Positions 6,635 through 26,566 of a stretch of DNA of 51,466 nucleotides are shown here, piece by piece (the stretch's first letter is position 1; the number at the start of each line of letters is the position of its first letter). Location: the IMG/VR virus record IMGVR_UViG_2585427971_000010. One strand, 5' to 3'. Under the pieces are notes generated by a model. It did not search any database. It was given only the letters and a program-made list of their open reading frames with translations, and was not told the origin of the DNA. The translations under genes and the position numbers were made by a program. The DNA comes from a virus. Lineage: Duplodnaviria > Heunggongvirae > Uroviricota > Caudoviricetes.

Positions 6635-7225
6635 CTAAAAAAAGAAGTGTATTATTGCCCAAACAGCTATAACGATGATTCCCAGCCCAAGAGCCGATTC
6701 TAACTTATCTTTGGCAGTCATTTTTACTGTTGTAGCGGGCGCAGGTAAGTCTTGCTGCTGTGGATTTTCTGTTAGTTGTTTACGAGAAGAAACATCGCCC
6801 CTGTTAGTTTGCTTCATGTTGATTACAGATGCGTTATGGGCATTATCAGCAGCAATTGACTGAAGTTTTACAAAAGTTTTTGAATCTGTTTTAGCCAGAA
6901 GTAACCTATTTCCCGTAAACATTGCCTTAAAAGTGATAGTTTTTTTCGTCTTGTCCGCCGCACCAAGCAAACCTCCAATGACCAACCCTGCACCACCAAA
7001 GATTAATCCACCAAGCAAACCTGCGCCTGCCGCCTTACCTATACGGCTTTCCTCTTCACTATCCGCAAGTTCAATCGATAAAAGCTCTTCTTTCAGATTT
7101 AATACAATATTTTCAGGAAAGCCTTGTTTTGGTTTTTTGGCAAACACGATGGTACCGAACCCCATGCTTGCCCACCCTTTAGGAAAACTTCCTGCGATAA
7201 CCTGAATCCCTGCCATGTTCATCAC
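6635..7225 (-). CDS. membrane protein with glycine-zipper TM segment and C-terminal TM helix
   Basis: AAGAGLLGGLIFGGAGLVIGGLLGAA segment; C-terminal LGLGIIVIAVWAIIHFFF; last gene of the repressor operon. Confidence 0.5.
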   Translation of the reverse strand: MMNMAGIQVIAGSFPKGWASMGFGTIVFAKKPKQGFPENIVLNLKEELLSIELADSEEESRIGKAAGAGLLGGLIFGGAGLVIGGLLGAADKTKKTITFKAMFTGNRLLLAKTDSKTFVKLQSIAADNAHNASVINMKQTNRGDVSSRKQLTENPQQQDLPAPATTVKMTAKDKLESALGLGIIVIAVWAIIHFFF

Positions 7226-7306
7226 CTTTTACATTAAAATTTCAGAACGCAGCATGATGCCGCCTTTGTCTTTTTTCTGATCCCATGGTAATTCAGCTGT
7301 TATTTT

Positions 7307-8293
7307 CTATTTAAGAATAAAACGGTATTTACTGTCAGGAGTGCTTTGCTGATCAAGTAGCAGTGAACGACATGGAGCAGTCAAAACCCGAGCATAACTA
7401 CCATCAGGGCTTATGTTAATGTAACAAACCTTGCCCTTAACACTATAATTTTCGGGGACGGATGCCTTTGCTGATACAGTAAATTTAAGGGTATGCCAGC
7501 CCGTTTTTTGCTTGTAGCTTGAAACCGAATGGAAATCATCTGAGTACTTATTTAACCCTGGAAACATGCTGCGCAGTGCGGGGATGGAATCTTCTATTAT
7601 TTTATCGTTGGTTTTAATGTTAAAAACGCTGGTTTCAGTAGAAGCTACTGCTTTGGCATTTCCCCATTTACCAGCGAACACAATCATTCCCACGAAAAAT
7701 ATTGCTACAAGAACTAACACTCCCCCCAACACTACTACATGAGGCTTCCGGCTTCTGGTTGGTACAGTTGCGACTGATTTTGCACCGCTTTCCGATGGAG
7801 GTGATAGAGTTTTACTCTCATCACGAATATTCAGCAGATCATCAAAATAACCAAACACAGCCTGCAACTGCTCTTTGTCTAGGCCTTTAAGATGGGTTGT
7901 ACCGAAATGCTTCAGACAGTATCTGTCACGGTCAAGACGATACCCAGGGTCAGTAAGCGCCATTATTTTGCTGACCAGAAGATTACAGTCCTTCATATTC
8001 TGGATCTGTTGTGCATATCTCTGAAGGATCTCAACCGCACCATGATAATCAGCCGCAGTCATTTCATTAACTGTTTTGGTATTAAGTTTCGTGTGGATCG
8101 TCATCCATAGCTCGCGCTTACTTTCCCCCAGATCAACCAATTCATCCATCAATCTGTGTAAATCGCGTTTTTGCAGCAACGAAATTGGTTGCTGGGCCGA
8201 AGGAAGTATGTCAGCAGAATAGTTATGAATGGTAACATCACCGCTGACAACGTTACCCACATCCCCGTTAACTGTTTGCTTCTCTTTACTCAT
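7307..8293 (-). CDS. bitopic membrane protein (cytoplasmic N-domain, one TM helix, periplasmic C-domain)
   Basis: 328 aa; TM HVVVLGGVLVLVAIFFVGMIVFAG; start overlaps repressor stop (ATGA); N-terminus shares a GDV-GNV-G-VTI motif with the repressor C-terminus. Confidence 0.55.
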   Translation of the reverse strand: MSKEKQTVNGDVGNVVSGDVTIHNYSADILPSAQQPISLLQKRDLHRLMDELVDLGESKRELWMTIHTKLNTKTVNEMTAADYHGAVEILQRYAQQIQNMKDCNLLVSKIMALTDPGYRLDRDRYCLKHFGTTHLKGLDKEQLQAVFGYFDDLLNIRDESKTLSPPSESGAKSVATVPTRSRKPHVVVLGGVLVLVAIFFVGMIVFAGKWGNAKAVASTETSVFNIKTNDKIIEDSIPALRSMFPGLNKYSDDFHSVSSYKQKTGWHTLKFTVSAKASVPENYSVKGKVCYINISPDGSYARVLTAPCRSLLLDQQSTPDSKYRFILK

Positions 8294-8751
8294 CTTCTCT
8301 TGGTATTTTTGTTCATTATTCCACCTGTTCCTATGGTTACGTTACCTTTGATAACATTCCCCAGAACATCTCCATGAATAACCTGTTCCGCCCGTTCTCT
8401 GGAGGAGCCAGTAGTCAAGGCCGACAAAACTGAACCTTTGACCTGTAATGGTGCCTGCCGGTAGTGCTGCAGTAACTCCATTTCATCACGTGATAAAGTT
8501 ATACCTGATGACTCCCCGGTAAGAATGAACTGTACATTGGCCCCAATTCTTGCAAAGGCTGCAAGTAACTCACCTCCGGGAACAGCAACCCCTCGTTCAT
8601 ATTTCCCCCACATTTCTCTTGAAACGCCACAAAGGGCTGCTACTTCAGCCTGCTTGAGTGATAACCGCGAACGCTCAGCTTTGAACCGCGACGCGCAAAG
8701 AGAATCAAAATTCACATAAACCTCATTGACAATGAGAACAATAGTTCTCAT
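8290..8751 (-). CDS. XRE-family HTH transcriptional repressor (candidate Mu c-like immunity repressor)
   Basis: HTH segment LSLKQAEVAALCGVSREMWGKYERG; divergent from the small regulator at 8802 as in Mu c/ner. Confidence 0.7.
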   Translation of the reverse strand: MRTIVLIVNEVYVNFDSLCASRFKAERSRLSLKQAEVAALCGVSREMWGKYERGVAVPGGELLAAFARIGANVQFILTGESSGITLSRDEMELLQHYRQAPLQVKGSVLSALTTGSSRERAEQVIHGDVLGNVIKGNVTIGTGGIMNKNTKRR

Positions 8752-8801
8752 AATCTATCACATATAAAACAAACATCATTGCATCAACAAAGGAGACAAC
8801 A
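8752..8801. promoter_or_regulatory. divergent promoter/operator region between repressor and Cro/Ner-like gene
   Basis: Short AT-rich intergenic region between divergently transcribed regulators. Inferred from arrangement only. Confidence 0.35.
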
Positions 8802-8990
8802 ATGACTTCCGAACAAGTTAAAAATCTCTTCCGTCAGCGTGGTATCACGTTTACCCGCTGGGCCGAAGAACACGGCTACAGCCGCAATGAGGTCTATCGT
8901 GTTCTCAATGGACAGACCAAAGCTCGTTACGGCAAAGCCCATGAAATTGCCGTAAAACTGGGATTAAAACCCACGTCAAATGCGGCATAA
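8802..8990 (+). CDS. small Cro/Ner-like DNA-binding regulator
   Basis: 62 aa, HTH-like (FTRWAEEHGYSRNEVYRVLNG); strong SD (AAGGAGA); positional equivalent of Mu ner. Confidence 0.6.
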   Translation: MTSEQVKNLFRQRGITFTRWAEEHGYSRNEVYRVLNGQTKARYGKAHEIAVKLGLKPTSNAA

Positions 8991-9042
8991 ATTTTCCACA
9001 TATGCAACAGGTTATCACATATTGCAAAAATGGAAATGTGAC

Positions 9043-9351
9043 ATGAGTAAAGTAAATATTTCCAGTTCTGGGACCCGCATCCTACGTGTACTCAAAGCTC
9101 TACGCGGTCATGCTCTGAACGGTGTTTCTAACGGTGAACTGGCATCAGCCCTGGGGGAGTCCCCGGCGAATATCAATCGAGCACTTAATACCCTTATTGA
9201 AGAGGGACTGGCCATGAAATTAGAGAACGGACGTTTCGCACCGGGAATCCAGTTACTACAGATCGCCATGGCTCACAGTCACGAGATGGCGCGTGCACAG
9301 GATCGTATTAACGAAATCAACCAACGAGTTATTTCAGGTAGTCGTTTGTAA
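9043..9351 (+). CDS. putative winged-helix DNA-binding protein
   Basis: Internal Met of ORF 8980..9351; HTH-like GVSNGELASALGESPANINRALNTLIEEGL. Start uncertain. Confidence 0.4.
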   Translation: MSKVNISSSGTRILRVLKALRGHALNGVSNGELASALGESPANINRALNTLIEEGLAMKLENGRFAPGIQLLQIAMAHSHEMARAQDRINEINQRVISGSRL

Positions 9352-9361
9352 GGAGTAATCA

Positions 9362-10276
9362 ATGGGACGCACCAAATCACCCGTTAACACTGAACTGAAT
9401 GTTGAGGTTCCGCTGTCAGATAACATCAATGTCAATTTGAACGCTATGACACAGCATCGCATGGAAATTATGCAGCAGTTTGGTGATGGACTGCCTTATG
9501 AACGTGATCGCATTGTTCACGAAGCACGTTTTTATATGGCGCAGAGTGCTGAATCTATGCTGGAAGCGGGTAAGCGGCTGATCATCTTAAAAGAAAATGA
9601 GCCACACGGTGATTTTACAAACATTTTAGAAAATGAACTCGGACTTGCACCACAAGTTGCTCGCCGCATGATGCAAGCCAGTATGAAGTTTTTGGGAGAA
9701 GGTGATGAGCCAACAAAACGCTCAACGTTGAGCGTTTTGGGGAAAGCCAAACTGTACGACCTGATGGTTCTGGATAATGAAGAACTTGATGAATTGGCCG
9801 ACGGCGGCACAGTTGCCGGCCTGACGCTTGACGACGTTGATCGCATGTCAGTACGTGAATTGCGTCAGGCCCTGCGCGAAGCGCGCGAAACCAACGCAGC
9901 ACAACAGCGCGTACTCGCCGACAAAAATGAAAAAATAGATTCACTCTCCACCAGACTGGAGAAGAAATCCCGTATTCAGCCGCCTGAGCCTGATGAGGAG
10001 GTTAAGAAGCTGCGGGCGGAAGTAACAGCATTAGCGGTTGAGGCGGAATCTGCTATCGCCGTCCGACTGTCCAGCGCTTTTGAGACGCTGTGCGCATATT
10101 GTGCTGAAAACATGATTGATACCCCCAGAGACTTCATGGCAGGCCTGGTCTGTCAACTGGAAAGCACAGCGCGTAGCCTGCGCTCCACATTTGACCTGCC
10201 GGACGAGCCAACAGGCAATGCAGCGCCTTCATGGCTGACTGAGCCGACGCCACAGATTAACGGGCTGGAGGCATAA
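9362..10276 (+). CDS. hypothetical protein (Mu-like early region)
   Basis: 304-aa ORF with strong SD (AAGGAG); acidic, coiled-coil-rich. Confidence 0.55.
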   Translation: MGRTKSPVNTELNVEVPLSDNINVNLNAMTQHRMEIMQQFGDGLPYERDRIVHEARFYMAQSAESMLEAGKRLIILKENEPHGDFTNILENELGLAPQVARRMMQASMKFLGEGDEPTKRSTLSVLGKAKLYDLMVLDNEELDELADGGTVAGLTLDDVDRMSVRELRQALREARETNAAQQRVLADKNEKIDSLSTRLEKKSRIQPPEPDEEVKKLRAEVTALAVEAESAIAVRLSSAFETLCAYCAENMIDTPRDFMAGLVCQLESTARSLRSTFDLPDEPTGNAAPSWLTEPTPQINGLEA

Positions 10277-10279
10277 CCA

Positions 10280-12049
10280 ATGAATGCTGCCCTGACTGAA
10301 CGACTGGTTTATGTCGCCCGCGCGGCACGTGACGCGGGGCATGGTAAACGCGGTGCAATATACGACGCTGCCTGTGCTGAACTTGGCATGTCCCGCGCCA
10401 CTCTGCTGCGCAGGCTGAAGGAGGTCTCTGTGACTGATAAACGCAAAAAACGCGCCGATGCCGGGCGCAGCGCCCTGACCCGCGACGAAGCCGCGCTGAT
10501 ATCTGCCACACTGCGTGAGGCCACCCGCAAGAACGGTAAGCGTCTCTATTCCATCGCAGATGCAGTGGAAACCCTGCGGGCTAACGGCTTTATCACCGCA
10601 GGCAGAACAGATGAAACCACCAGTGAGTTTTTCCCGTTGTCTGAAGATGCCATCAGCCGTGCTCTGCGTAACTATGGCCTGCACCCGGAACAACTGGATG
10701 CCCCTGCACCACATACCGAAGTGGCCAGTCTGCATCCCAATCATGTCTGGCAGATTGACGCCTCACTCTGCACGCTTTACTACCTGAGCAATGGACATAA
10801 AGGGCTGCAGGTGATGGACAGCGCGAAGTTCTACAAGAACAAGCCCGCTAACCTTGCCCGTATCGCCAGTGACCGCGTGTGGAGTTACGAGATTACCGAC
10901 CATGCCAGCGGCTGGATTTACGTTGAGTATGTGACGGGCGCGGAATCAGGTGAGAACCTGTGTTCTGTGCTTATCAACGCCATGCAGGAGCGTGGCGGCG
11001 CAGACGTGCTGCACGGCGTGCCGAAAATACTCTATCTCGACCCCGGCTCGGCAAACACCGCGGGTATGACGAAAAACATGTGCCGCTCACTGGGCATCGA
11101 CCTGATAGCGCACAAGCCGCATAACGCCCGCGCCACCGGACAGGTGGAAAAGGCGCGTGACATTATCGAACGCAAGCTGGAGCCGGGTCTGAAGTTCCGG
11201 CCGGTTCACAGTCTGGAAGAACTCAACGCGCTGGCCGCGAAATGGCGCAGCCACTTTAACGCCACGGCTGTTCACAGCCGCCACGGTAAAACCCGCACGG
11301 ATATCTGGCTGAAGATTACTGCTGAGCAGCTGAAAAAAGCGCCTTCCGTTGAGGTATGTCGTGAACTGGCTGTGGCGGCACCAGAACTCCGCAAAGTCAC
11401 GCCAAAACTTCGTGTCTCGTTCCGGGGCACTGAATTTGACGTATCAACGGTACCGGGCGTACTGGTTGGTGAAAAACTGATGATTACCCGTAACCCATGG
11501 CGCAGCGATGTGGCACAGGTGGTTCTGACCGGTGAGGACGGCCACGAGACGTTCTTCCTGGTCGAAGAGGTCAGAAAGAACGAGTTTGGCTTTGCTGAAG
11601 GCGCGGCGGTATTTGGCGAAAGTTACAAAGCCCTGCCGGAAACCCCGGCACAGATGGCGGCAAAAGAAACCGAAGCGCTGGTTACCGGTACAGACAACGC
11701 CGCAGATGCAGCCGCCGCACGCAAGGCGAAGGCGCTGCCGTTCGGCGGGCGGCTTGACCCGTATAAACATATCGACGACACCACACTTCCGGCCTATATG
11801 CCGAAGCGTGGTCAGGCCTCTGACGTACGCGGGCCGCGCACTGAACAACGTCCCATGACTCATGTGGAGGCCGCGAAAGCCCTGCGCGATAAGTTCAGCG
11901 CCGACGGCCTTACCTGGACGCCGGAACATTACCGCCAGTTAACGGCACAGTACCCGGACGGCGTACCGGAAGCCGCACTGGATGAAGTCATGGCCACGCT
12001 GACCACACCGGCCCGCAGCAGTGTTATCAGCATTGTTAACGGCAACTGA
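10280..12049 (+). CDS. DDE transposase (Mu A-like, integrase-core/rve fold)
   Basis: 589 aa; catalytic-core-like segments (HVWQIDASL…, …ITDHASGWIYVEY…, …LYLDPGSANTAG…); followed by AAA+ partner as in MuA/MuB. Confidence 0.8.
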   Translation: MNAALTERLVYVARAARDAGHGKRGAIYDAACAELGMSRATLLRRLKEVSVTDKRKKRADAGRSALTRDEAALISATLREATRKNGKRLYSIADAVETLRANGFITAGRTDETTSEFFPLSEDAISRALRNYGLHPEQLDAPAPHTEVASLHPNHVWQIDASLCTLYYLSNGHKGLQVMDSAKFYKNKPANLARIASDRVWSYEITDHASGWIYVEYVTGAESGENLCSVLINAMQERGGADVLHGVPKILYLDPGSANTAGMTKNMCRSLGIDLIAHKPHNARATGQVEKARDIIERKLEPGLKFRPVHSLEELNALAAKWRSHFNATAVHSRHGKTRTDIWLKITAEQLKKAPSVEVCRELAVAAPELRKVTPKLRVSFRGTEFDVSTVPGVLVGEKLMITRNPWRSDVAQVVLTGEDGHETFFLVEEVRKNEFGFAEGAAVFGESYKALPETPAQMAAKETEALVTGTDNAADAAAARKAKALPFGGRLDPYKHIDDTTLPAYMPKRGQASDVRGPRTEQRPMTHVEAAKALRDKFSADGLTWTPEHYRQLTAQYPDGVPEAALDEVMATLTTPARSSVISIVNGN

Positions 12050-12059
12050 GGAGGGAAAC

Positions 12060-13226
12060 ATGCTGGTACTGAAGCAGCAACTGAAAGAGGCCCGTATTCC
12101 ACAGGCGGTGGTGGCGAGAGCTGTCGATGTTTCTGAGGCCACGCTGGCCCAGATTGTGAATCATAACGCGTGGCCCCGCACCAGCCCCGGAGAAGTGCGC
12201 CGGCGTCTTGCGTCCTGGCTGGAAAGTCAGGGGATTGATACAACGAAGAGTTTTGATGCTGTACAGGGCGCGGCCACGCCCCGTACAGCGGGTACCACAG
12301 ATAAAACGAGCCTCAGTGAGGAAGAGAATATGTTACTCAAAAAACAGGTGTTATTTCCAGCAACCAAAAAAGCGTTTGGTCTTTTCCGTGACCCGTTCGC
12401 CGACGAAGCCATGCAGGGTTCTGATGATGTGTTCACCACCCCGGACATTCGCTACGTGCGTGAGGCGCTGTACCAGACAGCCCGTCATGGTGGGTTTATG
12501 GCCGTCATCGGTGAGTCCGGTGCGGGTAAATCCACGCTGCGCCGCGACCTGACTGAACGTATCAACCGCGAGAATGCGCCGGTAATTGTTATCGAGCCAT
12601 ACATCATCGCTATGGAAGACAACGATGTGAAAGGGAAAACCCTGAAGGCAGCAGCTATTGCCGAAGCCATTATCAGTACCATCGCACCACTGGAAAGCAT
12701 CAGACGCAGTCAGGACGCCCGTTTTCGCCAGTTGCATCGCGTCCTGAAAGACAGCAGCCAGGCGGGGTTCAGCCACGTTCTGGTGATTGAGGAGGCCCAC
12801 AGTCTGCCCATTCCGACACTGAAACACCTCAAACGCTTTTTTGAGCTGGAGTCCGGTTTCAAAAAACTGCTGTCCATCGTGCTGATTGGCCAGCCGGAAC
12901 TGGCGACAAAACTGTCTGAACGCAATATGGAAGTCCGTGAAGTCGTTCAGCGCTGTGAGGTGGTCGAACTTCTGCCTCTGGACAATAACCTTGAAGAATT
13001 TCTGACGTTCAAACTGCAACGGGCCGGTAAACAGCTGACGGACATTATGGACGCCGGTGCAGTGGATGCCATACGTGCCCGCCTGAGCAATCCGGGAAGT
13101 CACCGTAAAAATATGGTCAGCCTGCTGTATCCGCTGGCCGTCAGTAACCTGGTAATAGCCGCCATGAATCTGGCCGCTGAAATCGGGGTTCCACAGGTCA
13201 ACGCTGACGTTGTCAAAGGGGTTTAA
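12060..13226 (+). CDS. transposition ATPase (Mu B-like AAA+ protein)
   Basis: Walker A GESGAGKST, Walker B-like HVLVIEEAH; N-terminal HTH; GGAGGG SD before internal ATG at 12060. Confidence 0.75.
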   Translation: MLVLKQQLKEARIPQAVVARAVDVSEATLAQIVNHNAWPRTSPGEVRRRLASWLESQGIDTTKSFDAVQGAATPRTAGTTDKTSLSEEENMLLKKQVLFPATKKAFGLFRDPFADEAMQGSDDVFTTPDIRYVREALYQTARHGGFMAVIGESGAGKSTLRRDLTERINRENAPVIVIEPYIIAMEDNDVKGKTLKAAAIAEAIISTIAPLESIRRSQDARFRQLHRVLKDSSQAGFSHVLVIEEAHSLPIPTLKHLKRFFELESGFKKLLSIVLIGQPELATKLSERNMEVREVVQRCEVVELLPLDNNLEEFLTFKLQRAGKQLTDIMDAGAVDAIRARLSNPGSHRKNMVSLLYPLAVSNLVIAAMNLAAEIGVPQVNADVVKGV

Positions 13227-13228
13227 TA

Positions 13229-13498
13229 ATGAAATCCACCACAGGTATCAACCAGCAAATCAGCAAAGTGCAGTCAGCCATTATGGCGCTTAAGGCGACG
13301 AACACGGATGTACAGAGCATCACCATCAGGGGTAACAAACCTGTCATCCGCGTTTCCCGGAGTGCGCATTGCATGCGCATGCTTGAGCAGGGAAAGGCCT
13401 GTTATCTGTATACCGGACATGACCACAGGGGATATTTCCGTCAGGGCGTTTTCGAACTGCACGGCTGTCGCGTCGTGTGGCCGGAATCTTTGTGGTAA
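13229..13498 (+). CDS. hypothetical small protein (Mu-like semi-essential region)
   Basis: 89-aa ORF immediately after B with SD. Confidence 0.45.
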   Translation: MKSTTGINQQISKVQSAIMALKATNTDVQSITIRGNKPVIRVSRSAHCMRMLEQGKACYLYTGHDHRGYFRQGVFELHGCRVVWPESLW

Positions 13499-13525
13499 TC
13501 AGCACAACTGGAGAAATCATAAAAA

Positions 13526-14056
13526 ATGGCAAAAAGTACAAAAGGTGCAAAACGTATCAAGGCCGCAGCAGCACTCTGGGTGCCGGGGACACGTGAAGAG
13601 GTCATTGAGGGAATCAGACTACTCGGTGACGCACAACGTGAACTGGTCAGGGCTGAAACAGAAATGAATGACGCCATTGGCGATATCACCGCACGTTATG
13701 CCCCGCTCACCGAGAGCCTGAAAAAACGCATGGCCGAACTGCAGTCCGGTATTCAGACATGGTGTGAGGCACACCGTGATGAACTGACCGGCAACGGGAA
13801 GGTGAAGTTCGCTAACCTCACCACCGGCGAGGTGCAGTGACGAAACCGTCCGCCATCAGTCAGTATCCGTGGGGCGGATAATGTTATTGAATTACTGAGA
13901 CGTCTGGGGCTTGAGCGCTTTATTCGTGTAAAAGAGGAAATAAATAAAGACGCTATCCTGAATGAAAAAGAGGCCGTGAAAAATATTCCCGGTATTTCCA
14001 TTAAAAGCGACATTGAGGATTTTTCAATAATTCCTTTTGAGCAGGATGTGCAGTAA
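13526..14056 (+). pseudogene. gam: Gam-like host-nuclease inhibitor (Mu Gam homologue) interrupted by in-frame TGA at 13838-13840
   Basis: N-terminal 104 aa recalls Mu Gam (MAKSTKGAKRIKAAAALWVPGTREEV…); the same frame continues after the stop (RNRPPSVSIRGADNVIELLRRLGLERFIRVKEEINKDAIL…SIKSDIEDFSIIPFEQ) matching the Gam C-terminus; the stop sits where Mu has Trp. Confidence 0.6.
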
Positions 14057-14153
14057 ACACACCACGTTAATTATTTAATAAAAACATTTTCTTTTTTATT
14101 CCGACGTCAGCGCCGCGGGCTTCTGCACGCCGGAAACAGAGGAGAATTAAATC

Positions 14154-14348
14154 ATGATATTTAAATGTATTCAGTGCGAGAGGGATATAACAGCCCTGCG
14201 TTTTCACAGCGCCATCGCCGTGATGTCCGGTAAATACCACATCCCTGCGGTACGCGTCACCCTGGTCTGCCCGTACTGCAGCCAGCATTTTTCGGCAGAC
14301 GTGCCCGTCATGGAATTCTCCCGCCCTGACAGGGAGGACTCGCAATGA
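14154..14348 (+). CDS. small zinc-ribbon-like protein
   Basis: 64 aa with CxxC…CxxC (CIQCER … CPYCSQ); SD GAGGAG. Confidence 0.45.
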   Translation: MIFKCIQCERDITALRFHSAIAVMSGKYHIPAVRVTLVCPYCSQHFSADVPVMEFSRPDREDSQ

Positions 14349-14617
14349 TTACCCCACAGGAAGCACGACAGCGCACCCGAACCCTTGTTGAACACTATGT
14401 CAACGAGTGTGAATGCCGCGACCTCACCGATGTGAAGCACGTCCTGACGGCGCTAATCAGCATGACCGCTCAAGCCATTGTGGCGACCAACGGAAAGGCG
14501 GCTGCCCTGCAGGTACTGGTGAACACACTAACCCACACGGCAGCGCATGAGGTGCCGTACCGGATGGAAACCACTGCAGAAGGCGGCCTGCACATCACCG
14601 TCAGCCGGAAGCACTGA
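14345..14617 (+). CDS. hypothetical protein
   Basis: 90-aa ORF, SD GGGAGG, start overlaps upstream stop. Confidence 0.45.
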   Translation: MITPQEARQRTRTLVEHYVNECECRDLTDVKHVLTALISMTAQAIVATNGKAAALQVLVNTLTHTAAHEVPYRMETTAEGGLHITVSRKH

Positions 14618-14626
14618 GGGCGCGGC

Positions 14627-14923
14627 ATGACACGGAACACCATACTCACCCGCACCGCCCTCTACCGTCTGGCCCTGCAGCGTTTCGGGCCGGACGCACA
14701 GGCCCTGAAACTGACAGAAGAGGCCGCTGAACTGGCGGCCAGTGCTGCCCGCAATCTGAACGGACAGGGCAGCGAAAGCGACCTCGCGGCAGAGCTGGCA
14801 GACGTGGAAATCATGACAGAGCAATTGCGCCTTCAGGGGATGGACCGGCTGATTGACTTCCACAAACAGAAAAAACTGGAACGTCTGGCTGCACGACTGG
14901 GCGTGATTTACACGAACGAGTAA
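14627..14923 (+). CDS. MazG-like nucleotide pyrophosphohydrolase domain protein
   Basis: 98 aa with EExxE and E..D motifs (LTEEAAELAASAAR; ELADVEIM) typical of all-alpha NTP pyrophosphohydrolases. Confidence 0.5.
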   Translation: MTRNTILTRTALYRLALQRFGPDAQALKLTEEAAELAASAARNLNGQGSESDLAAELADVEIMTEQLRLQGMDRLIDFHKQKKLERLAARLGVIYTNE

Positions 14924-14937
14924 CCGGGAGGCATTCA

Positions 14938-15153
14938 ATGGCTGACATACTCAGGGAAATCACCGCATGGATACTGATTCTTACTGGCCTGGCGACATGC
15001 CTCAGTGCGGGGGCAGCCCTGGCTGCCCTGCTGATGCACATAACAACACAGTGGTTATGGGAAAAGCTTAAAGCAGCATACAGCCTGAAAGAGCTGTCCG
15101 ACGCTGTCCGGGCATGGAAACGGCAGAAAAATACAGGAGATACAGAACAATGA
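14938..15153 (+). CDS. small membrane protein
   Basis: 71 aa, hydrophobic helix (ITAWILILTGLATCLSAGAALAALLM). Confidence 0.4.
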   Translation: MADILREITAWILILTGLATCLSAGAALAALLMHITTQWLWEKLKAAYSLKELSDAVRAWKRQKNTGDTEQ

Positions 15154-15833
15154 CAGACCAGAATAAACACATTGAGAAACTGAAAAAGTTGCTGGCGCTG
15201 GCCGCATCCGGCAACCCGCACGAGGCCGCTCTGGCACTGCGCCGAGCCCGTAAACTGATGGATGTTCACGGCATCACACATTCCGACATTGCTATGAGTG
15301 ATATTGATGAAACCATCAGTCACTACTGGCCGACAGGCAGTCTCCGTCCACCGCGCTACATGCTGGGCCTGATGAACATCATCCGCGAGGTATTTGGTGT
15401 TAACTCCATCATTCACCCCGGCACGCATCCGTCTGTGGGGTTCTACGGCAACCGGGAACGTGCGGCACTGGCTGCATACACCTGGGAAGTGCTGGCCCGT
15501 CAGCTGAAAAAGGCGCGTCAGCAGTATATCAGTGCACAGAACAAAAGAATAAAAACCGCCACCCGCACCAGCCGTGGAGACCAGTTTGCCGAAGGCTGGG
15601 TGCTGGCCGTTATCAGTGAAATACAGTCCTTTGCCCTGACCGATGATGAGCGTGAACTGATGCAGCAGTGGCTGGAACATAAATACCCGCAGACGCAAAC
15701 CACCAGGGCGCGTAAACCGGGAAGAAGCCGCAATGGCGACGCCTCGCGCTATGCGGGGTTTCGTGAAGGGCAGAACGTCAGACTGCACCGCCCGGTCAGT
15801 GGGCAGGAACAACAGAAACTGGAGGCCAGATGA
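15150..15833 (+). CDS. hypothetical protein conserved in Mu-like early regions
   Basis: Internal Met with GGAG SD (MTDQNKHIEKLKKLLALAASGNPHEAALALRRARKLM…). Confidence 0.5.
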   Translation: MTDQNKHIEKLKKLLALAASGNPHEAALALRRARKLMDVHGITHSDIAMSDIDETISHYWPTGSLRPPRYMLGLMNIIREVFGVNSIIHPGTHPSVGFYGNRERAALAAYTWEVLARQLKKARQQYISAQNKRIKTATRTSRGDQFAEGWVLAVISEIQSFALTDDERELMQQWLEHKYPQTQTTRARKPGRSRNGDASRYAGFREGQNVRLHRPVSGQEQQKLEAR

Positions 15834-16060
15834 TTACGCTATCAGGTAAAAGCCGGAAATTAAAAGCCTGCCGAATATCTGCCAGATACCTTTTTGCCCG
15901 CGCCTTTTTTAAGAACGTCAGGCCGGGGATCACAATTGGTGTTATTGCCGGACGCGAACAGGTTGAAAAATACATGTCAGGTGCATGGTGGAATAACGAC
16001 CCTGTCATTGCTGCCCGTAATATTCATATCGAATGGGGAGGTATTCAGAATGACTACTGA
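15830..16060 (+). CDS. hypothetical protein
   Basis: 76-aa ORF with GGAGG SD, start overlaps upstream stop. Confidence 0.4.
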   Translation: MITLSGKSRKLKACRISARYLFARAFFKNVRPGITIGVIAGREQVEKYMSGAWWNNDPVIAARNIHIEWGGIQNDY

Positions 16061-16256
16061 AACCATTGTCTGTTTTCTTTTCTGGTATATGTACGCAGGA
16101 TCATGCAGCGCAAGACTTCATCGTTCCCTGGGCTATGGCAGGCACTACGACACCGCGCATTACATCCTGTACATGACCGCCGTCATGTTGTTCTGGCCAG
16201 TCACCCTGCCAGCTGCAACCGACATTGTTGCCGACAGACTGAAAAAAAGGAGATGA
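16050..16256 (+). CDS. small hydrophobic protein
   Basis: 68 aa from internal Met (MTTETIVCFLFWYMY…), SD GGGGAGG. Confidence 0.35.
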   Translation: MTTETIVCFLFWYMYAGSCSARLHRSLGYGRHYDTAHYILYMTAVMLFWPVTLPAATDIVADRLKKRR

Positions 16257-16257
16257 T

Positions 16258-16707
16258 ATGCAGAAAAAACGCCTGATACAGCTTATCCATATTGCCCGTA
16301 ATGAACTGGGTATGGATGAAGACACCTACCGCCAGATGTTACAGGGGCTGACCGGTAAAGCCTCAACCAAAGGAATGGATACCACACAACTAAACTGCGT
16401 GCTGGAATCCATGAAAAAGAAAGGCTTTCGCGTTAAACCAGCCAGAAAAGCCAGCTCCGGTTTACCGCTGGATAACCATCCGCAGTCCAGGAAAATTCGT
16501 GCGCTATGGCTTGAAATGGCTGCTGCCGGCATTGTTCGTGACCGTTCAGAAAATGCATTAGCGAGGTGGATCAAGCGGGAAACGGGCATCAGCGCCCTGC
16601 GCTGGCTCAGTACTGAACAGGCAAGCAGTGTTATTGAGAAACTGAAGAAGTGGCAGCGCAGAGCTGCGGGAGTCAAACATGAGCGACCTGAATCAGTTTC
16701 GAAGTAA
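16258..16707 (+). CDS. gemA: GemA-like regulatory protein (Mu gp16 family)
   Basis: N-terminal LIQLIHIARNELGMDEDTYRQML… pattern typical of GemA; sits immediately upstream of the Mor-family gene. Confidence 0.6.
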   Translation: MQKKRLIQLIHIARNELGMDEDTYRQMLQGLTGKASTKGMDTTQLNCVLESMKKKGFRVKPARKASSGLPLDNHPQSRKIRALWLEMAAAGIVRDRSENALARWIKRETGISALRWLSTEQASSVIEKLKKWQRRAAGVKHERPESVSK

Positions 16708-17068
16708 GGGGCCGGAACTCCTGGTGGAACTGGCACAGCATACCTCTGAGACCGTTCGCGAGATTATTGATATTGAGCCCGAAGTTGCCGACCAGATTGG
16801 TCAGGCCGTCGCGAACCGAATGATGCAGGTCTGGGGCGGGCAAAACGTTTATTTCCCGATGGGCATGGTATGGAAGGTCAGTCAGCGCGACCGGGAAATC
16901 TTCAGGGAGTTTAACGGACGCAACCACCACGAACTGGCCCGCAAATTTGGTGTTTCGCTTCAGTGGGTCTACAGCGTGGTTAAGCGGGTAAGAAAAGAAG
17001 AACTGGATCGGATGCAGGGCAAGCTATTTGCTGATGAACCCGATGCAGATACGGAGAAAAAAGAGTAA
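16679..17068 (+). CDS. mor: Mor/C-family transcriptional activator
   Basis: 129 aa with conserved Mor-family segments (…WGGQNVYFPMG…, …FREFNGRNHHELARKFGVSLQWVYSVVKRVR…). Confidence 0.7.
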   Translation: MSDLNQFRSKGPELLVELAQHTSETVREIIDIEPEVADQIGQAVANRMMQVWGGQNVYFPMGMVWKVSQRDREIFREFNGRNHHELARKFGVSLQWVYSVVKRVRKEELDRMQGKLFADEPDADTEKKE

Positions 17069-17097
17069 TATCTGCAATCAGGCTGGCGCGAGTTCTG

Positions 17098-17154
<57 letters not shown>

Positions 17155-17155
17155 A

Positions 17156-17232
<77 letters not shown>

Positions 17233-21227: not shown

Positions 21228-22016
21228 ATGACAGTCCAAATATCTGCGGAATCCCTTTCTCCGCTACATCATAACCAACTTCCCGTCATCACTACTGAAT
21301 TGCTTGCCAGTTTGTATGGCACGGAAGTAAATGGTATCCAGCAAAACTTCAAGCGCAACATCGCCAGATTTGTCGTAGGAAAGCATTTTTTTAAGCTGGA
21401 AGGTAATGAATTACGCGACTTCAAAAACAGACTGACAGATAGTCAGTCAGTTGCTAAACATACCCGATCCCTCATTCTCTGGACAGAACGCGGCGCAGCT
21501 CGCCATGCCAAAATGCTGGAAACAGAACAGGCCTGGGAAGTTTTCGAAAAGCTGGAAGATTGTTATTTTAGCCAGCGTCCAGAGAGGCGGAGTACAACTA
21601 CCGATGACCGTACTCCCTTGCGTGATGCCGTTAATATACTGGTCGGCAAGAAAGGCATGATGTATCCCGATGCCTACACCATGATTCATCAACGCTTCGC
21701 CGTCTCTCACATAGAACAACTGTCACAGACGCAAATGTTAGAGGCGATTGAATACATCCACTGCCTGCTACTCGATGAAAATCACCCAACCATTCCAGAT
21801 TTTTCTTTTATCACCACTATCAAAAATGGAAAAGTGACCGGGATGCGCCATGTTGCCAAAGGCGAACATCTGATGACCTTTGACGCTTTCAAAGAGATCG
21901 CTGAGCGGGCAGGGTATCTGGTGATCCACAGCGACAATCTGCGAAGTATGACACTGGATAAATTGATGGTAATGGGGAAAAAGTCGGCTATATCCGTTGC
22001 TAATTCAGCATTTTGA
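21228..22016 (+). CDS. antirepressor-like protein (ORF6N-type N-terminal domain)
   Basis: N-terminal region ELLASLYGTEVNGIQQNFKRNIARFVVGKHFFKL resembles antirepressor N-domains; start set at Met 17 (GAGG SD); 21180 or 21198 also possible. Confidence 0.5.
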   Translation: MTVQISAESLSPLHHNQLPVITTELLASLYGTEVNGIQQNFKRNIARFVVGKHFFKLEGNELRDFKNRLTDSQSVAKHTRSLILWTERGAARHAKMLETEQAWEVFEKLEDCYFSQRPERRSTTTDDRTPLRDAVNILVGKKGMMYPDAYTMIHQRFAVSHIEQLSQTQMLEAIEYIHCLLLDENHPTIPDFSFITTIKNGKVTGMRHVAKGEHLMTFDAFKEIAERAGYLVIHSDNLRSMTLDKLMVMGKKSAISVANSAF

Positions 22017-22046
22017 CAGGTTGTTTGGGGCGGAAATACTCTATTT

Positions 22047-22112
22047 GCGCTTAAAAAGGTATTTGACCACGACCAGCACGAGACCGAATACCTCTGTCAA
22101 AGTACCGCCCAT
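22047..22112. repeat. 66-bp direct repeat, copy A (orphan copy of the 3' end of gene 25463..26068)
   Basis: About 93% identical to 25468..25533; on the minus strand encodes MGGTLTEVFGLVLVVVKYLF*. Confidence 0.7.
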
Positions 22113-22142
22113 ATAAAACAGTTACATATGCACTTGATGACT

Positions 22143-22176
22143 AAGCTGGCACCAGGTTAACACCTGGCGCCAGCTT
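22143..22176. terminator. strong hairpin (about 15-bp arms, 4-nt loop) between convergent genes; probable terminator
   Basis: AAGCTGGCACCAGGT-TAAC-ACCTGGCGCCAGCTT, just downstream of the lipoprotein gene stop; no clean U-tract. Confidence 0.45.
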
Positions 22177-22190
22177 GAAGGAGACTTCAG

Positions 22191-23114
22191 TTATTGGTTT
22201 CTGAGGAAAGCGATTCTTGAAAGGGTCATTTGCGTCTGGCAGTCGACCATTTTCTTGACTTCAGCATCTGTTCCCTGCATTGAAACTTTACCGCACATAG
22301 CATCCTTAGTTTTGATCCACTGACGCTGAGAAGGCAGCAAATCTTTTTTCTTCGCCGGGGTTAACTTGCTCCAGACGGTACTCAAATCAGAGTCGGCATT
22401 CGCAAATGCCATTCGGGACTGATCAAGGTTGTCAGCTTTTTGCGGCTGAAGTTGTGCCTGTCTCTCTATTTGCTTCTCCGCCTCATACTTAGCCTGTTCT
22501 TGCGCCCTGAGTTGCACCTGTTGTTCCGCTTCAATTTGACTCTGTTGGGCATCCTTAGCCTGCTGGATTTTCTGCTGCTCAACGATCGGGGTGATAATGG
22601 AAAGCGATGTCAGTAAAGCGGCGCCCACTGATATCGGATTATCAGTAGAGGTTTTTACAAAAACGTTTTTCTGATCGTCGGTCGCCTGCACGGTGTAGGT
22701 GATACGTTTTGAAAAGGCGTTTGCGTTGTTCTCCAAAAACAGGCTTTCCATTTGCTTATCGAGATTACGATTAAAATTCTTTCTGTAAGCATCTGAAAGC
22801 TGGACGTACTCGTTCGCAGATAGAGTCATCGTCACGGTCCCTTCACAAGTTTTCATTGTGCTGCCCGTGTCACTTGATGTTGTGGAGATCTCAGAGATGG
22901 CTAGTTTGATCTTGTCCAGTGTGCTTCGTTTGGTCTGATTAGTGACATCAGGGTATTTATCGACCTGTTCAGAGAGTCCTTCATAAGCAGATTTTTTTAA
23001 TAAATCCATGAGAGCTGACTGGGTTATTTCCGAAGAACAACCGATCTCATCTTTTTTGTTATCACAGCCTGTAAGGGCAATGGCGAGTAAGAGTACTGAG
23101 TATTTTAATCTCAT
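22191..23114 (-). CDS. lipoprotein with C-terminal LprI-like (DUF1311-type) domain
   Basis: Signal peptide with lipobox LTGC; Q-rich coiled-coil; C-terminal Cys-containing region (…QRQWIKTKDAMCG…VDCQTQMTLSRIAFL). Confidence 0.6.
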   Translation of the reverse strand: MRLKYSVLLLAIALTGCDNKKDEIGCSSEITQSALMDLLKKSAYEGLSEQVDKYPDVTNQTKRSTLDKIKLAISEISTTSSDTGSTMKTCEGTVTMTLSANEYVQLSDAYRKNFNRNLDKQMESLFLENNANAFSKRITYTVQATDDQKNVFVKTSTDNPISVGAALLTSLSIITPIVEQQKIQQAKDAQQSQIEAEQQVQLRAQEQAKYEAEKQIERQAQLQPQKADNLDQSRMAFANADSDLSTVWSKLTPAKKKDLLPSQRQWIKTKDAMCGKVSMQGTDAEVKKMVDCQTQMTLSRIAFLRNQ

Positions 23115-24301
23115 GAATTCCCTTTAGAGTAAGGATTGGTTTTTAAGACGCGGTCTGTAATCAGTCCCGAGAGCTACAGTAAACAACGCTGAGCACTGAA
23201 CGCATCACAGGTAAGGTAAAAGGTGATATCGGCAAAGGCTGTGAAACCTTTAATTCAACAGATGGGAACGGTATGCGCAGGATCCTGTAACGACGCTCCC
23301 AAAACCGGAAACCTGTAAGGCATGTTTTCGCTGCTGAACTTAATATACGAACCTGCACTATCATGAACATATTTTATATCGTTATACCCCGAGTGATTGT
23401 GCCCGGCAATGGATAGTGTCCTGGAGGAACTATTTCTACTGTAAAAGGTAGATATTTAATTTCAGTTTTGAATTATTCCCTGCTGTTAATAACAATGGCT
23501 GTATATGGCACCGAGTAGGCATTTTTTCGCTTACTGAAGGGCAGCTGTGAGCGAGGAACAGACTTTCCCTACTTCGTTGAGAGTACACCTAGTACAATCA
23601 AGGCTAAATGATAAAAATATACAAAATATCATATTTATGATATATATAATGGCATTAATCTTATTCTTGGATTACGTTGAAAGGGTAATATTATATTTGT
23701 GTAACATAGTTTAGATAACAATGCCGTTATGGGGGGGGAAAGACATTTCAACATATTAGCTTTGTATCTAACGCTCATGTAGATCTCGATTTTGAACTTA
23801 AAGAACAATTATTTTTTAGAGAGCAAGGTATTTTTGGGGAACAAAAACATAAAGTAATGGAGAGAGGAGAATGTATCAAAAAATCATCGATTTAATTTAG
23901 ATTGTCCGTATAGTTGGGGGTAAGTCGAATCGCTGGGCTACATGGAATATTGTGTCAAGTAAAAATATATTTCAATCTTGCAATAACCGATTGTTGAAAA
24001 TAATGTCAAATCTTAATGGTGAATGGGGAGAATATAATAAACATGAGTCGATATTATGCAAATGGATTTAAATATTTTATACCCGAAGACATAGGGTTTC
24101 GAGAGTTCGATGAGACTACTTTGAATGCTTTCGAATTTGCTGGCTAAAACATATAGGTTATATCTTACATCTGTTTGTAATGGAGCGTAGATGCGACAAG
24201 CTACACCATAATAATCATATTATGATATATTGTTAAGTTGTTATGGCATTAAATAAAATTATGTCATTTTGTTAACCAAGCAAGAATCAAAGGACTTTTA
24301 G

Positions 24302-25000
24302 ATGGGTACGGCATTAATTTCAAGCTTTATTAGTGGTGCAATAGCTATAATCTCTATTGCTATATCTACTTATAATCAGAATAGAATAAACAAGCTCAAT
24401 GAATCACTGGATGTAAGGAGAAAACATCAGTACTATATTGAACCGTTAATTCGCTCAGCTTCAGACTTACAAAGCCGTATTTATAATATATTAGAATTGG
24501 GGTTCATTGAAGAGTTTTATCATAATGGGAATAAGCGCCAACAAGATTATGTTATCAACAATACTGTTTTTCTTTTTTCCCAGTTTTTTGCATGGACAGA
24601 AGCTGCCCGCATAGACATTCAATACCTTAGCCTAGAAAAAAATAAAAAAATGAGGGAGTTTATTAGATTACAGAACAATATTAACTCATTAATCCAAACA
24701 GACGTCTTTGGTCAGTATTTTATGTTTTTCATAGGAGAGCAGAGAGCTATTGCAGAAAAGATGCTGATATCAACAGATACTGGATTTGATTGCATAGGTT
24801 ACGGCAGTTTCACAAAGGAAAATTGCTTTATCAATGAGCCATTTTTTTTAGATTTAAACAATGAAGTGATAAATATGACAAGAGATATCGGAATTTATAA
24901 AGAAAGGCTAATCAGAATACAGCACGCGTTAATCGATTTAATTAATTTTCTTGATCCTGGCATGATTCGATTTGACGGAAAAAAATATGGAAAAATATAA
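24302..25000 (+). CDS. low-GC membrane-anchored protein of unknown function (single N-terminal TM helix)
   Basis: 232 aa; N-terminal helix ALISSFISGAIAIISIAISTY; strongly AT-rich codon usage inside an AT-rich island. Confidence 0.55.
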   Translation: MGTALISSFISGAIAIISIAISTYNQNRINKLNESLDVRRKHQYYIEPLIRSASDLQSRIYNILELGFIEEFYHNGNKRQQDYVINNTVFLFSQFFAWTEAARIDIQYLSLEKNKKMREFIRLQNNINSLIQTDVFGQYFMFFIGEQRAIAEKMLISTDTGFDCIGYGSFTKENCFINEPFFLDLNNEVINMTRDIGIYKERLIRIQHALIDLINFLDPGMIRFDGKKYGKI

Positions 25001-25184
25001 CCCAGATGATTCGTATCAAGGTAAGTTGCTATATGTATCAATTTAATTATGGTTGGGTGAAATTTATGTTAATAGTAGCGGAGGGTTAGTTAAAATATGC
25101 TCTCAGTGATTTTTGGATAGTTCTTTTATTTATCATTGAAAGTAAATATGTATAGCTTCAAGATTTACAAGTGAATCTGTTTAT

Positions 25185-25218
25185 TGACAGTCCGCTTATG
25201 GCACAGAGCGGACTGTCA
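25185..25218. other. perfect 12-bp inverted repeat hairpin
   Basis: TGACAGTCCGCT-(10 nt)-AGCGGACTGTCA, followed by T-rich sequence; downstream of gene 24302..25000. Confidence 0.4.
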
Positions 25219-25462
25219 TATTAAATTTGGCTCCACGCCATAGATGTGTCAGCTCATATCTTATCTAATACACACAATAACTTTCTCATTCTTGGAGAAT
25301 TATTTTTTTAAGGGTAGGTGTTGACGTTAGAGCAAAAGAATGGTGATTTTTTTGATGTGTATTACGTTGGAACTGATGGGAATAACTATCTGTTTTCAAC
25401 GCACTGCTAATTTATCAAGGCCCTTTGATCAGGGCCTTCGAAAGACTGTTGGACCGAGAGAG

Positions 25463-26068
25463 TTACTTGCGTTTAAAAAGGTATTTTGTCACGACCAGCA
25501 CGAGGCCGAATACCTCTGTCAAAGTACCGCCCATGTACAACTGTAGTGTTAAATCCTCAAATTCCAGCTTACCTGCGCCGTCGGCAATAAATACACCATT
25601 CATTATCAGAAGTTGGAAAGCAAGGATAATCAGGAACCATTTCCCGTATCGTTTTTTTAGAGCGATTTCTGCTTCAAAATCTTTGTTGTTGAGTTGTTTG
25701 CGCTCATGCTCGGTATCAAGTGAATTCACCTGTTTCACAGATGTGAACTCGGTCAAGATTTTACTCTCAGTACGGGTGACTTGTTGAGAGGGTGTAGCAG
25801 TTGGAATTCTTTTGCTAGACGCAGCTACAGCCATTTTGCGAGCTTCGGCAGCTCTTTTTCTGGCTATTCCGCGAATACGGACAGCCGTTTTTTTGGGGGC
25901 GTGCGAAACCTTTGGCTGAGGTGAAGCTTCGTCAGGAGACTGAACCGGAGTTTCATCGTCCTCCGGCTCAACCTCTTCTGCTAACTGACGGTGTAGGTTG
26001 AGGGAATCCTTCAGTCTGCGTGCTACTTCCTGTTTGAAACGGCTGTTAAAATCGTCATCCGATGGCAT
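25463..26068 (-). CDS. membrane-anchored protein: charged disordered N-terminal region plus two C-terminal TM helices
   Basis: 201 aa; K/R/E/P-rich N-terminal two-thirds; C-terminal WFLIILAFQLLIMNGVFIA and LTEVFGLVLVVTKYLF; 9-nt gap after the peptidase gene. Confidence 0.55.
   Translation of the reverse strand: MPSDDDFNSRFKQEVARRLKDSLNLHRQLAEEVEPEDDETPVQSPDEASPQPKVSHAPKKTAVRIRGIARKRAAEARKMAVAASSKRIPTATPSQQVTRTESKILTEFTSVKQVNSLDTEHERKQLNNKDFEAEIALKKRYGKWFLIILAFQLLIMNGVFIADGAGKLEFEDLTLQLYMGGTLTEVFGLVLVVTKYLFKRK
25468..25533. repeat. 66-bp direct repeat, copy B (encodes C-terminal TM helix of gene 25463..26068)
   Basis: Matches 22047..22112 with 4-5 mismatches. Confidence 0.7.
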
Positions 26069-26077
26069 TTTAAAGCG

Positions 26078-26566
26078 TTACCCCAACCTCAAGTTCTTTA
26101 AACGATAAGTCATCGCATCGTCAGATACGCCAAAATAATGCGCCATTATATAACTTGGTTGACCGTCAGCGTGCAGTTTTCTGACCTCATCTACCGGCAT
26201 CAGAAGTTCTGCTGCGAACTTGTTTGCAAAAATTTCATCAGGATGCGTTCCGGCGCTTGCGGTTTCGCCACGTAAATCAACGTACTCATATTCATCGCTA
26301 TGCGATGCTTGCCGGGCGATGTAATGCCCCAACTCATGCCCACATGAAAAACGTTGACGAACTTTGTTGTCATCACTGTTTAGAAAGATCGCTGGATCTT
26401 GATCTTTTTGTTTAATCAGTGCGCCAGAAACTTTCCCAGGAAGATCGGTAATAAAAACATCTAATCCCATGTCGTGAGCAATTTTCGCTGGATCAACAGG
26501 GAAACCACGCCCGCACCAGAACGTGTCCAGCACTCGCCGGGCGTGCTCTCTTGGGTTGGTAGCCAT
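26078..26566 (-). CDS. ImmA/IrrE-family zinc metallopeptidase
   Basis: HEXXH motif (HELGHY) in an ImmA/IrrE-like context; 162 aa, no HTH domain of its own. Confidence 0.7.
   Translation of the reverse strand: MATNPREHARRVLDTFWCGRGFPVDPAKIAHDMGLDVFITDLPGKVSGALIKQKDQDPAIFLNSDDNKVRQRFSCGHELGHYIARQASHSDEYEYVDLRGETASAGTHPDEIFANKFAAELLMPVDEVRKLHADGQPSYIMAHYFGVSDDAMTYRLKNLRLG

Follow-up and report, generated by a model that had tools for sequence, protein, structure and literature searches.

What function is served by a solitary gene of foreign base composition that lies between the replication genes and Q of a lambdoid-type prophage? The question is raised by positions 24302–25000 of IMG/VR record IMGVR_UViG_2585427971_000010, a sequence of 51,466 nt assigned to the Caudoviricetes and analyzed here over its whole length (the window). 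The initial annotation had described the gene as an orphan of no recognized family and had suggested superinfection exclusion or abortive infection as the role of its product, a protein of 232 amino acids (aa). According to our analysis, the gene is a good candidate for a one-gene phage-defense protein. The explanation that we tentatively favor is that of a stand-alone, prophage-borne membrane protein of defense or exclusion, because of its homology to a component of a validated defense system and its genomic associations. The suggested exclusion or abortive-infection role thus stands as the best-supported guess, by homology and by the slot that the gene occupies, although part of the family is found in contexts other than defense.

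The homology concerns the systems built on reverse transcriptase (RT)-nitrilase enzymes. A transmembrane (TM) protein of clusters 85 and 1858 is encoded downstream of some UG1 and UG5-large RT-nitrilases (Mestre et al., 2022; PMC9226505), and the “RT-nitrilase + 1TM” system from the P4 hotspot of Escherichia coli E101 has been validated, with the TM protein called its effector (Rousset et al., 2022; PMC9122126). A TM gene, drt1b, adjoins about 18% of drt1 genes and has a possibly channel-like product (PMC13275509, the DRT1 structure paper of 2026). The 232-aa protein matched the PADLOC model RTasTM PDLC03799 (E = 1.8e-5, 22.4 bits, profile positions 86–212 of 229). The same model was matched by all 53 aligned members of its family (best E = 9.8e-11), 40 of which also matched PDLC03013. 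The RTasTM models represent pFR76 protein 2 (Table S2A of Rousset et al., 2022), since this protein matched two of them with E values of 5e-164 and 1e-122. In hhalign, the family profile scored 95.9% (E = 5.7e-9) against pFR76 protein 2 and 96.4% (E = 1.4e-9, 132 columns) against a profile of 15 members of the RT-linked branch, and tblastn with pFR76 protein 2 against the fetched family loci gave matches down to E = 6.6e-9 (residues 6–182). Residues R59, Y83, T88, Q94, W98, R103, E146-Q147, I150-G151, and Y167 are invariant in both alignments. We conclude from these comparisons that the family of the 232-aa protein (hereafter, the solo family) and the RT-linked 1TM branch are homologous, with a common architecture, and belong to the same superfamily; they are probably different families, because true members score above 400 bits and the 232-aa protein only 22.

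The search for remote homology identified a distant homolog, the 1TM partner of RT-nitrilases, but neither a named Pfam or NCBIfam family nor a significant fold match to a pore-former. Scans of Pfam, NCBIfam, and PHROG gave only a noise-level match to CNNM and the function-less phrog_5606, and the best result of a PDB sequence search with the family profile was at the level of chance (E = 0.98). No match was found among the stand-alone defense models of PADLOC v2 (PD-, HEC-, PDC-, Abi, and Sie); apart from RTasTM, the only PADLOC hit was a weak one to a Cas3 model (E = 0.012, 13 bits).

The designation of the gene as an orphan has to be abandoned. A word-indexed search with a cut-off of E ≤ 1e-3 found 290 clusters of relatives, with no Pfam domain, and an exhaustive hidden Markov model search with a 53-sequence profile raised this to 1,928 clusters at 50% identity (1,165 at E ≤ 1e-10). 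These relatives include ORF1 (open reading frame 1) of the Z region of phage P2-EC58, and the family is also recorded as phrog_5606. When one genome of each species was scanned, 268 loci were confirmed, and the taxa represented are Enterobacterales, Burkholderiales, Acidobacteriota, Cyanobacteria, Actinomycetota, Bacteroidota, and others. Beyond these, the P2-EC58 fragment and two Streptomyces plasmids were all that plasmid and phage collections contributed. The name “lysogenic protein,” borne by several relatives, has evidently spread from the P2-EC58 record. Of the alignment columns, 23 are invariant, and many of these are polar (D55, Q57, S58, R59, N62, Y83, Q94, W98, E100, R103, E146, Q147, R148, Q207, and D218). 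Longer members were considered as a source of informative fusions, which they did not provide: a weak NAL1_N match that stays under the Pfam threshold was seen in two, a GerE helix-turn-helix in one, and no domain in the rest.

The genomic associations begin with the prophage itself. E. coli Ec394-330266 has a prophage, integrated downstream of pgsA and next to the Gly-Cys-Leu tRNA cluster, with which the window shares 99.996% identity from position 17231 to its end. In sibling prophages the homology of the backbone extends up to 23515 and restarts at 25441 (CD09) or 25191 (GF131), and the interval between is a cargo hotspot, since the siblings hold three other cargo sets there. CD09 and JX2 carry a 65-aa ORF, a GIY-YIG nuclease, and a 134-aa ORF; LCP30S3_I5 carries a 196-aa ORF and a DUF262 protein (PADLOC NsnA-like, E = 4.6e-41); and GF131 carries an AAA ATPase with a 252-aa protein (PADLOC PDC-M25A/B, E = 3e-157 and 5e-96). 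The GIY-YIG cassette had no PADLOC match, so that two of the three alternative sets match PADLOC defense or candidate models. The defense reading is supported by this placing of defense cargo into the same slot by sibling prophages.

It is supported as well by the movement of the same cassette between unrelated phages. A megablast search of phage records gave a single match, the 1,988-bp “proviral Z-region, ORF1” of P2-EC58 (AJ512683), in which the coding sequence (CDS) is named “putitive lysogenic protein” and inverted repeats are annotated on both sides. The homology to this record covers the whole cassette of about 1.7 kb, i.e., 760 nt of upstream DNA, the gene, and a hairpin downstream of it. 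The record was presumably deposited in about 2003–2004. The P2-EC58 version of the cassette occurs in four complete E. coli genomes, between the tail-fiber-assembly and tail-sheath genes, and the cassette is thus mobile between unrelated phage backbones, one of lambdoid type and one of P2-EC58 type. In P2, an earlier survey of anti-phage hotspots was directed at the one between gpA and gpQ, and the Z region was outside its scope (Rousset et al., 2022; PMC9122126).

Several observations were made on the junctions of the cassette. The hairpin at 25185–25218 and the next 50–250 nt are common to P2-EC58 (to 25272) and to GF131, which has different cargo (from 25191), and the P2-EC58 hairpin arm forms an imperfect inverted repeat of the left end of the cassette (37 nt, 76% complementary); it may be that the hairpin serves both as a terminator and as a junction used recurrently by cassettes. 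A direct repeat of 81 nt with 89% identity was found at 22042–22122 and 25464–25544. Its second copy is the 3' end of the gene for a 201-aa protein, and its first copy is a relic just downstream of an ORF6N gene, which reaches 283 nt in the sibling prophage L096. This suggests that cargo exchange at the slot used the repeat segment as recombination homology, and that the LprI-family gene to the left of the slot is possibly an earlier cargo.

The segment 23100–25450 is present in 452 of 5,426 complete E. coli genomes. Backbone copies are at least 99% identical in 419 of 440 cases, many of them from strains of O25b:H4 sequence type 131 (ST131), and the prophage carrying the gene is common in this lineage.

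The gene itself is well supported as a coding sequence under purifying selection. Orthologs from P2-EC58, from an Escherichia-like island (L091), from locus L094, and from Providencia (L003) all have exactly 232 codons without indels, and the ratio of nonsynonymous to synonymous divergence (dN/dS) was 0.25, 0.14, and 0.13 for the three ortholog pairs with an estimable dS. The corresponding E. coli protein, WP_000536231.1, is annotated as “lysogenic protein” or “hypothetical protein.” As the initial annotation had it, ORF calling and hydropathy agree on one N-terminal TM helix: the only hydrophobic segment comprises residues ~3–23 (mean Kyte-Doolittle value over 19 residues of 2.16), and no other stretch exceeds 1.0. 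The bulk of the protein is predicted to be cytoplasmic by the positive-inside rule, because the 21 residues after the TM segment include five K/R against two D/E. An AlphaFold2 model built with the family alignment was confident (pLDDT 86.7, pTM 0.80) and has a continuous helix at residues 3–65 (TM segment and stalk), followed by a helical bundle and a small beta-hairpin at 155–164. Constraint on the gene and confidence of the model both favor the defense reading.

The description of a low-GC cargo gene was likewise borne out. GC content is 0.32 in the ORF and 0.328 in the slot, compared with 0.497 in the whole window, and the gene forms a self-contained moron with its own ribosome-binding site (annotated at the equivalent site in the P2-EC58 record), a terminator-like hairpin, a foreign base composition, and presence or absence among syntenic phages. 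The hairpin, noted initially as a perfect 12-bp stem, has 13 pairs, 12 of them Watson-Crick and one G-U, and is followed by the tail TATTAAATTT. Its predicted fold has an energy of −28 kcal/mol (z = −5.1), and none of 200 shuffled sequences was as stable; the evidence for it as the terminator of the gene is at the level of consensus. Sigma-70-like promoter matches were not enriched (10, compared with 10.6 in shuffles), and the P2-EC58 record annotates −35 and −10 elements about 200 nt 5' of the gene.

The gene is also autonomous, which supports a one-gene mode of defense. When ORFs were called in 80 species loci, of which 70 had a call for the family gene, no neighbor cluster occurred in more than seven of the 70. 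Neither an RT nor another conserved partner adjoins it in the window or in the other fetched loci. In Enterobacteria and other Gammaproteobacteria the relatives are mostly in mobile or defense settings, and these too favor the defense reading. The settings include a P2-like prophage of Providencia, near an AAA_15 system; a P2-like prophage of Lonsdalea, directly after the integrase and adjoining an AAA_15 + DUF4435 pair; a metagenome-assembled genome (MAG) of Xanthomonadaceae, after SIR2 and HerA; a Serratia locus, after an ORC/CDC6-like ATPase; an island with AlpA and DUF4238; and a position in Erwinia beside an integrase fragment and a RelE module. Elsewhere, an SF1 helicase-nuclease or the R subunit of a type I restriction system precedes the gene, and these contexts count on the same side.

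A number of points weigh against this reading. The match to the RT-nitrilase partner is a distant one (22 bits, as opposed to 405–541 bits for a true RTasTM member), and DRT1 can defend without drt1b, the role of which is unknown (PMC13275509). No significant match was found to a pore-former fold of the ClyA/Cry6 type (alpha-helical toxins), and our literature search found neither a study of the solo protein nor a phenotype for any solo member. The prevalence of the gene says little about selection, because the carrier genomes are mostly of one clone. Furthermore, some relatives are located between housekeeping genes or behind a ychF or pullulanase gene. What speaks most against a uniform role in defense is an operon of the order carboxyltransferase-amidohydrolase-X-biotin carboxylase: in seven loci (L047, L049, L052, L056, L063, L069, and L074) the gene follows or abuts genes for an acyl-CoA carboxyltransferase and an amidohydrolase, and four or five of these have a 4-nt overlap with the upstream gene, in translational coupling, and a biotin carboxylase gene downstream. 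The seven MAGs are labeled Heliomicrobium, Blastocatellia, or Acidobacteria and are related to one another, and the gene is located near position 7000 of the fetched locus in most cases.

These loci argue for the alternative of greatest weight, a possible but rather doubtful one, in which the protein would be a membrane tether or scaffold with no defense activity of its own. It would anchor different cytoplasmic partner enzymes, an RT-nitrilase in one branch and carboxylase/amidohydrolase complexes in another, and the partner of the prophage copy would be a host or phage product from another locus, in lysogenic conversion or in a physiological role. The great breadth of the family, from Acidobacteria, Cyanobacteria, and Actinobacteria to Proteobacteria and Bacteroidota, is in agreement with such a role, as are the many housekeeping genes among the neighbors and the approximately 15 invariant polar residues, which suggest a specific binding surface more than a simple pore. 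However, the enterobacterial branch, which includes the 232-aa gene, is found almost only in prophages or islands beside defense genes, and the slot of the gene holds defense candidates in sibling prophages; moreover, the metabolic-operon arrangement comes from a single group of related MAGs and may represent one event.

It is less probable that the protein is an effector that depends on a template-independent polymerase from another locus of the cell or prophage (either an RT-nitrilase or, as in P2-EC58, Abi-P2) and is inert alone; we consider this improbable. The closest characterized relatives are indeed encoded directly downstream of RT-nitrilase genes, which they overlap by 4 nt, P2-EC58 also encodes the Abi-P2 polymerase (orf544) in a variable region (PMC9508834), and a mode of action resembling that of the Hailong channel, for which DNA adducts are the gating signal, has been suggested for drt1b (PMC13275509). 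In contrast, tblastn with an RT-nitrilase detected no homolog in the window or in the 104 fetched loci (1.34 Mb including the window) except at L099, the locus of the RT-nitrilase system itself; the query was a UG5-type enzyme, a search that a very divergent UG1 could escape, and the search did not extend to other classes of RT in the remainder of ST131 genomes. No RVT domain was found by Pfam in the large unannotated ORFs of the left part of the window, and the PGAP annotation of the matching Ec394-330266 prophage includes no RT. The E101-type RT-nitrilase allele occurs in 33 of the 5,426 E. coli genomes and the 232-aa gene in 452, and the latter has moved between phage backbones as a single-gene cassette.

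The DNA upstream of the gene was described initially as 1.1 kb of AT-rich sequence without convincing ORFs. No co-directional gene is present within 1187 nt 5' of the 232-aa gene, and PGAP annotates nothing in this gap (23115–24301); nevertheless, only 23544–24301 is of low GC, the part from 23115 to 23515 being prophage backbone common to siblings with other cargo, and there are traces of two small ORFs, one of them toggled by a poly-G tract. The AT-rich part never occurs in E. coli without the 232-aa gene (412 genomes). Most of it evolves roughly neutrally, since its divergence from P2-EC58 (80.7% identity) is about that of synonymous sites in the ORF (~85%). An exception is the block 23738–23895, the best conserved in comparison with L091 (0.75–0.80, against 0.30–0.65 in most other blocks). 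An Rfam scan of 22000–26000 found nothing credible, and thus no known noncoding RNA in the upstream DNA.

The exceptional block falls within the first small ORF, ORF-A, which is intact as 63 aa in L091 (5389–5580), broken in P2-EC58, and without an in-frame start in the window because the tract at 23731–23738 is G8. With G9, an ATG is followed by 55 codons read through to give phrog_7353. Other ST131 genomes have G9 or G10 as their only differences in the region, and exact matching among near-identical E. coli copies counted G9 in 196 genomes, G8 in 184, and other variants in 28. With only about 31 differences to count, the ratio of nonsynonymous to synonymous polymorphism (pN/pS) was 0.37 in the ORF-A frame, compared with 0.96 and 0.72 in the remaining frames. 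The tract may therefore be a slippage-prone switch (phase variation) acting on a small gene located ~570 nt 5' of the 232-aa gene; homopolymer assembly errors are a possible source of the G8 and G9 counts. The second small ORF, ORF-B, has its C-terminal half and stop position conserved in L091 and is interrupted in P2-EC58.

The upstream DNA was also considered as a decayed RT-nitrilase gene and rejected as such, since blastx of this DNA from three loci against RT-nitrilase gave a best E of 0.75, which is noise, and blastn gave chance words only. With this, it becomes very improbable that the gene is a functionless survivor, the 3' gene of an RT-nitrilase + 1TM or other multigene system with the 760 nt of upstream DNA as the wreck of a lost partner: the near-synonymous divergence and the broken small reading frames of that DNA would fit, but the 232-aa gene is under purifying selection, its four orthologs have no indels, and relatives with only 150–350 nt upstream are equally intact.

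Returning to the favored reading, a stand-alone membrane protein of defense or exclusion, we envisage that the short N-terminus would cross the inner membrane and that the conserved helical domain (residues ~45–232) would face the cytoplasm, where it would bind a partner or respond to a cue of infection. Through the long stalk helix, the TM helices could then oligomerize and disturb the membrane, or the entry of DNA could be blocked. The lysogen would be protected from other phages by a protein working without a reverse transcriptase. A bolder version, which we regard as unlikely, is that the solo family is a new and widespread class of one-gene membrane anti-phage proteins from which RT-nitrilase systems (UG5, perhaps DRT1) took their 1TM effector, and that in ST131 the module is coupled to the phase-variable (G8/G9) upstream gene, which would set its deployment.

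The family bears on the role of the TM partner in RT-nitrilase defense (DRT1, UG5), and a single-gene relative free of RT offers a simple system for asking what the membrane domain does alone. The solo family is large, is absent from Pfam, and is not a stand-alone system in PADLOC v2. Should it confer protection from phages, thousands of proteins annotated as “hypothetical” or “lysogenic” would constitute a widespread one-gene defense family; should it not, a scaffold or tether role would be indicated for the RT-linked partners. The presence of the carrier prophage in a large share of genomes of ST131, a major clinical lineage, could affect host range in phage therapy. The gene had already been deposited as a P2 Z-region ORF, and its protein was in PHROGs. 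Three points are regarded here as new, because we found no report of them: that the protein is homologous to the 1TM partner of RT-nitrilases, that the solo family is so large and broad, and that the gene occupies a defense-cargo slot in the ST131 prophage.

The features of the locus are listed in Table 1.

Table 1. Coordinates of features at the 232-aa gene and in its cassette (window numbering).
Feature	Position	Strand	Basis
Variable cargo slot of the prophage family	23516–25440		Homology to CD09 ends at 23515 and restarts at 25441
Mobile cassette (AT-rich upstream DNA, gene, and hairpin), ~86% to the P2-EC58 Z region (AJ512683)	23544–25272	+	Alignment
AT-rich upstream DNA, GC 0.32, part of the cassette	23544–24301	+	Cassette comparison
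Small ORF-A, 55 aa with G9; phrog_7353; out of frame in the window	23729–23895	+	Frame comparison
Poly-G tract, G8 in the window	23731–23738	+	Comparison of E. coli copies
Small ORF-B, 43 aa	24016–24147	+	ORF call, ortholog comparison
Shine-Dalgarno AAGGA, 7 nt 5' of the ATG	24290–24294	+	Read from the sequence
CDS, ATG start, 232 aa; WP_000536231.1; phrog_5606	24302–25000	+	ORF call, prophage match, selection test
Codons for the predicted TM segment, residues ~3–23	24308–24370	+	Hydropathy and AlphaFold2 model
Terminator-like hairpin, 13-bp stem, 8-nt loop, T-rich tail	25185–25218	+	RNA fold, cassette comparison

The neighbors of the 232-aa gene point away from it on the left and toward it on the right. 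On the left, a divergent gene (22191–23114, minus strand) encodes a lipoprotein of 307 aa, in which a glutamine-rich coiled coil forms the middle and an LprI (lysozyme inhibitor) domain the C-terminal part (Pfam E = 4e-7); this is probably another accessory gene, because it is found in some sibling prophages and is absent from GF131. On the right, the convergent gene for the 201-aa, putatively tail-anchored protein (25463–26068, minus strand) begins 9 nt after a gene for an ImmA/IrrE metallopeptidase of 162 aa (PADLOC capP, E = 2.4e-25; Pfam Peptidase_M78), the two together occupying 25463–26566 on the minus strand. The 201-aa protein (phrog_5346) has an apparently hydrophobic C-terminus, a putative TM segment. 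The pair is conserved backbone beside the variable slot and could be a protease-controlled membrane module of its own.

The left part of the window differs from the rest, and positions 1–17230 had no match in the reference ST131 prophage. A Mu-like portal and a putative large-terminase ORF (Terminase_6N below the Pfam cut-off) were found at 133–3331 on the minus strand, and an rve-family transposase with an AAA_22 ATPase, resembling MuA/MuB, at 10280–13226 on the plus strand. A transposable-phage element or a mosaic left arm appears to adjoin the lambdoid part of the window.

Among known systems, the 1TM protein of the E101 RT-nitrilase (a UG5 RT) is the nearest to the 232-aa protein. The two have 229 and 232 aa, respectively, a single N-terminal TM segment, a helical C-terminal domain, and a co-linear alignment, and the motifs Y-x3-[NS]T-x-F-x3-Q-x-F-x-W-x4-R, EQ[RK]xIGE, and C-x2-Y-x2-F are common to the 1TM protein and the solo family. 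Both genes are low-GC cargo of mobile-element hotspots of E. coli. The RT-nitrilase + 1TM system was active at room temperature only. Identity is nevertheless only ~21–25%, and the 232-aa gene has no adjacent RT-nitrilase. The RT-linked branch is small and enterobacterial (29 clusters at 90% identity in a word-limited search), compared with the 290 clusters that the word-indexed search gave for the solo family.

Drt1b, the TM protein encoded beside ~18% of DRT1 UG1 RT-nitrilase genes (Gao et al., 2020; cluster 85 of Mestre et al., 2022), is a small TM partner of a similar type, the likeness being known here from one weak match of one family member to the PADLOC Drt1b model (E = 0.005). Unlike in DRT type 1, no UG1 RT-nitrilase gene was found in the window with the UG5-type query. 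The HalA channel of Hailong, gated by the DNA adducts of HalB (cited in PMC13275509), offers a possible analogy of control, whereas no polymerase accompanies the gene here. RexB of lambda, SieB of P22 and lambda, gp15 of HK97, and Imm of T4 are also small inner-membrane protectors carried as prophage morons; the likeness is one of concept only, as scans of Pfam, annotated PHROG, and NCBIfam gave no sequence match to families of these types. The closest parallel in position is the Z/fun locus of P2. The fun(Z) gene of P2 excludes phage T5, and in P2-EC58 the copy of the cassette lies in the Z region, in the position of this classical exclusion gene.

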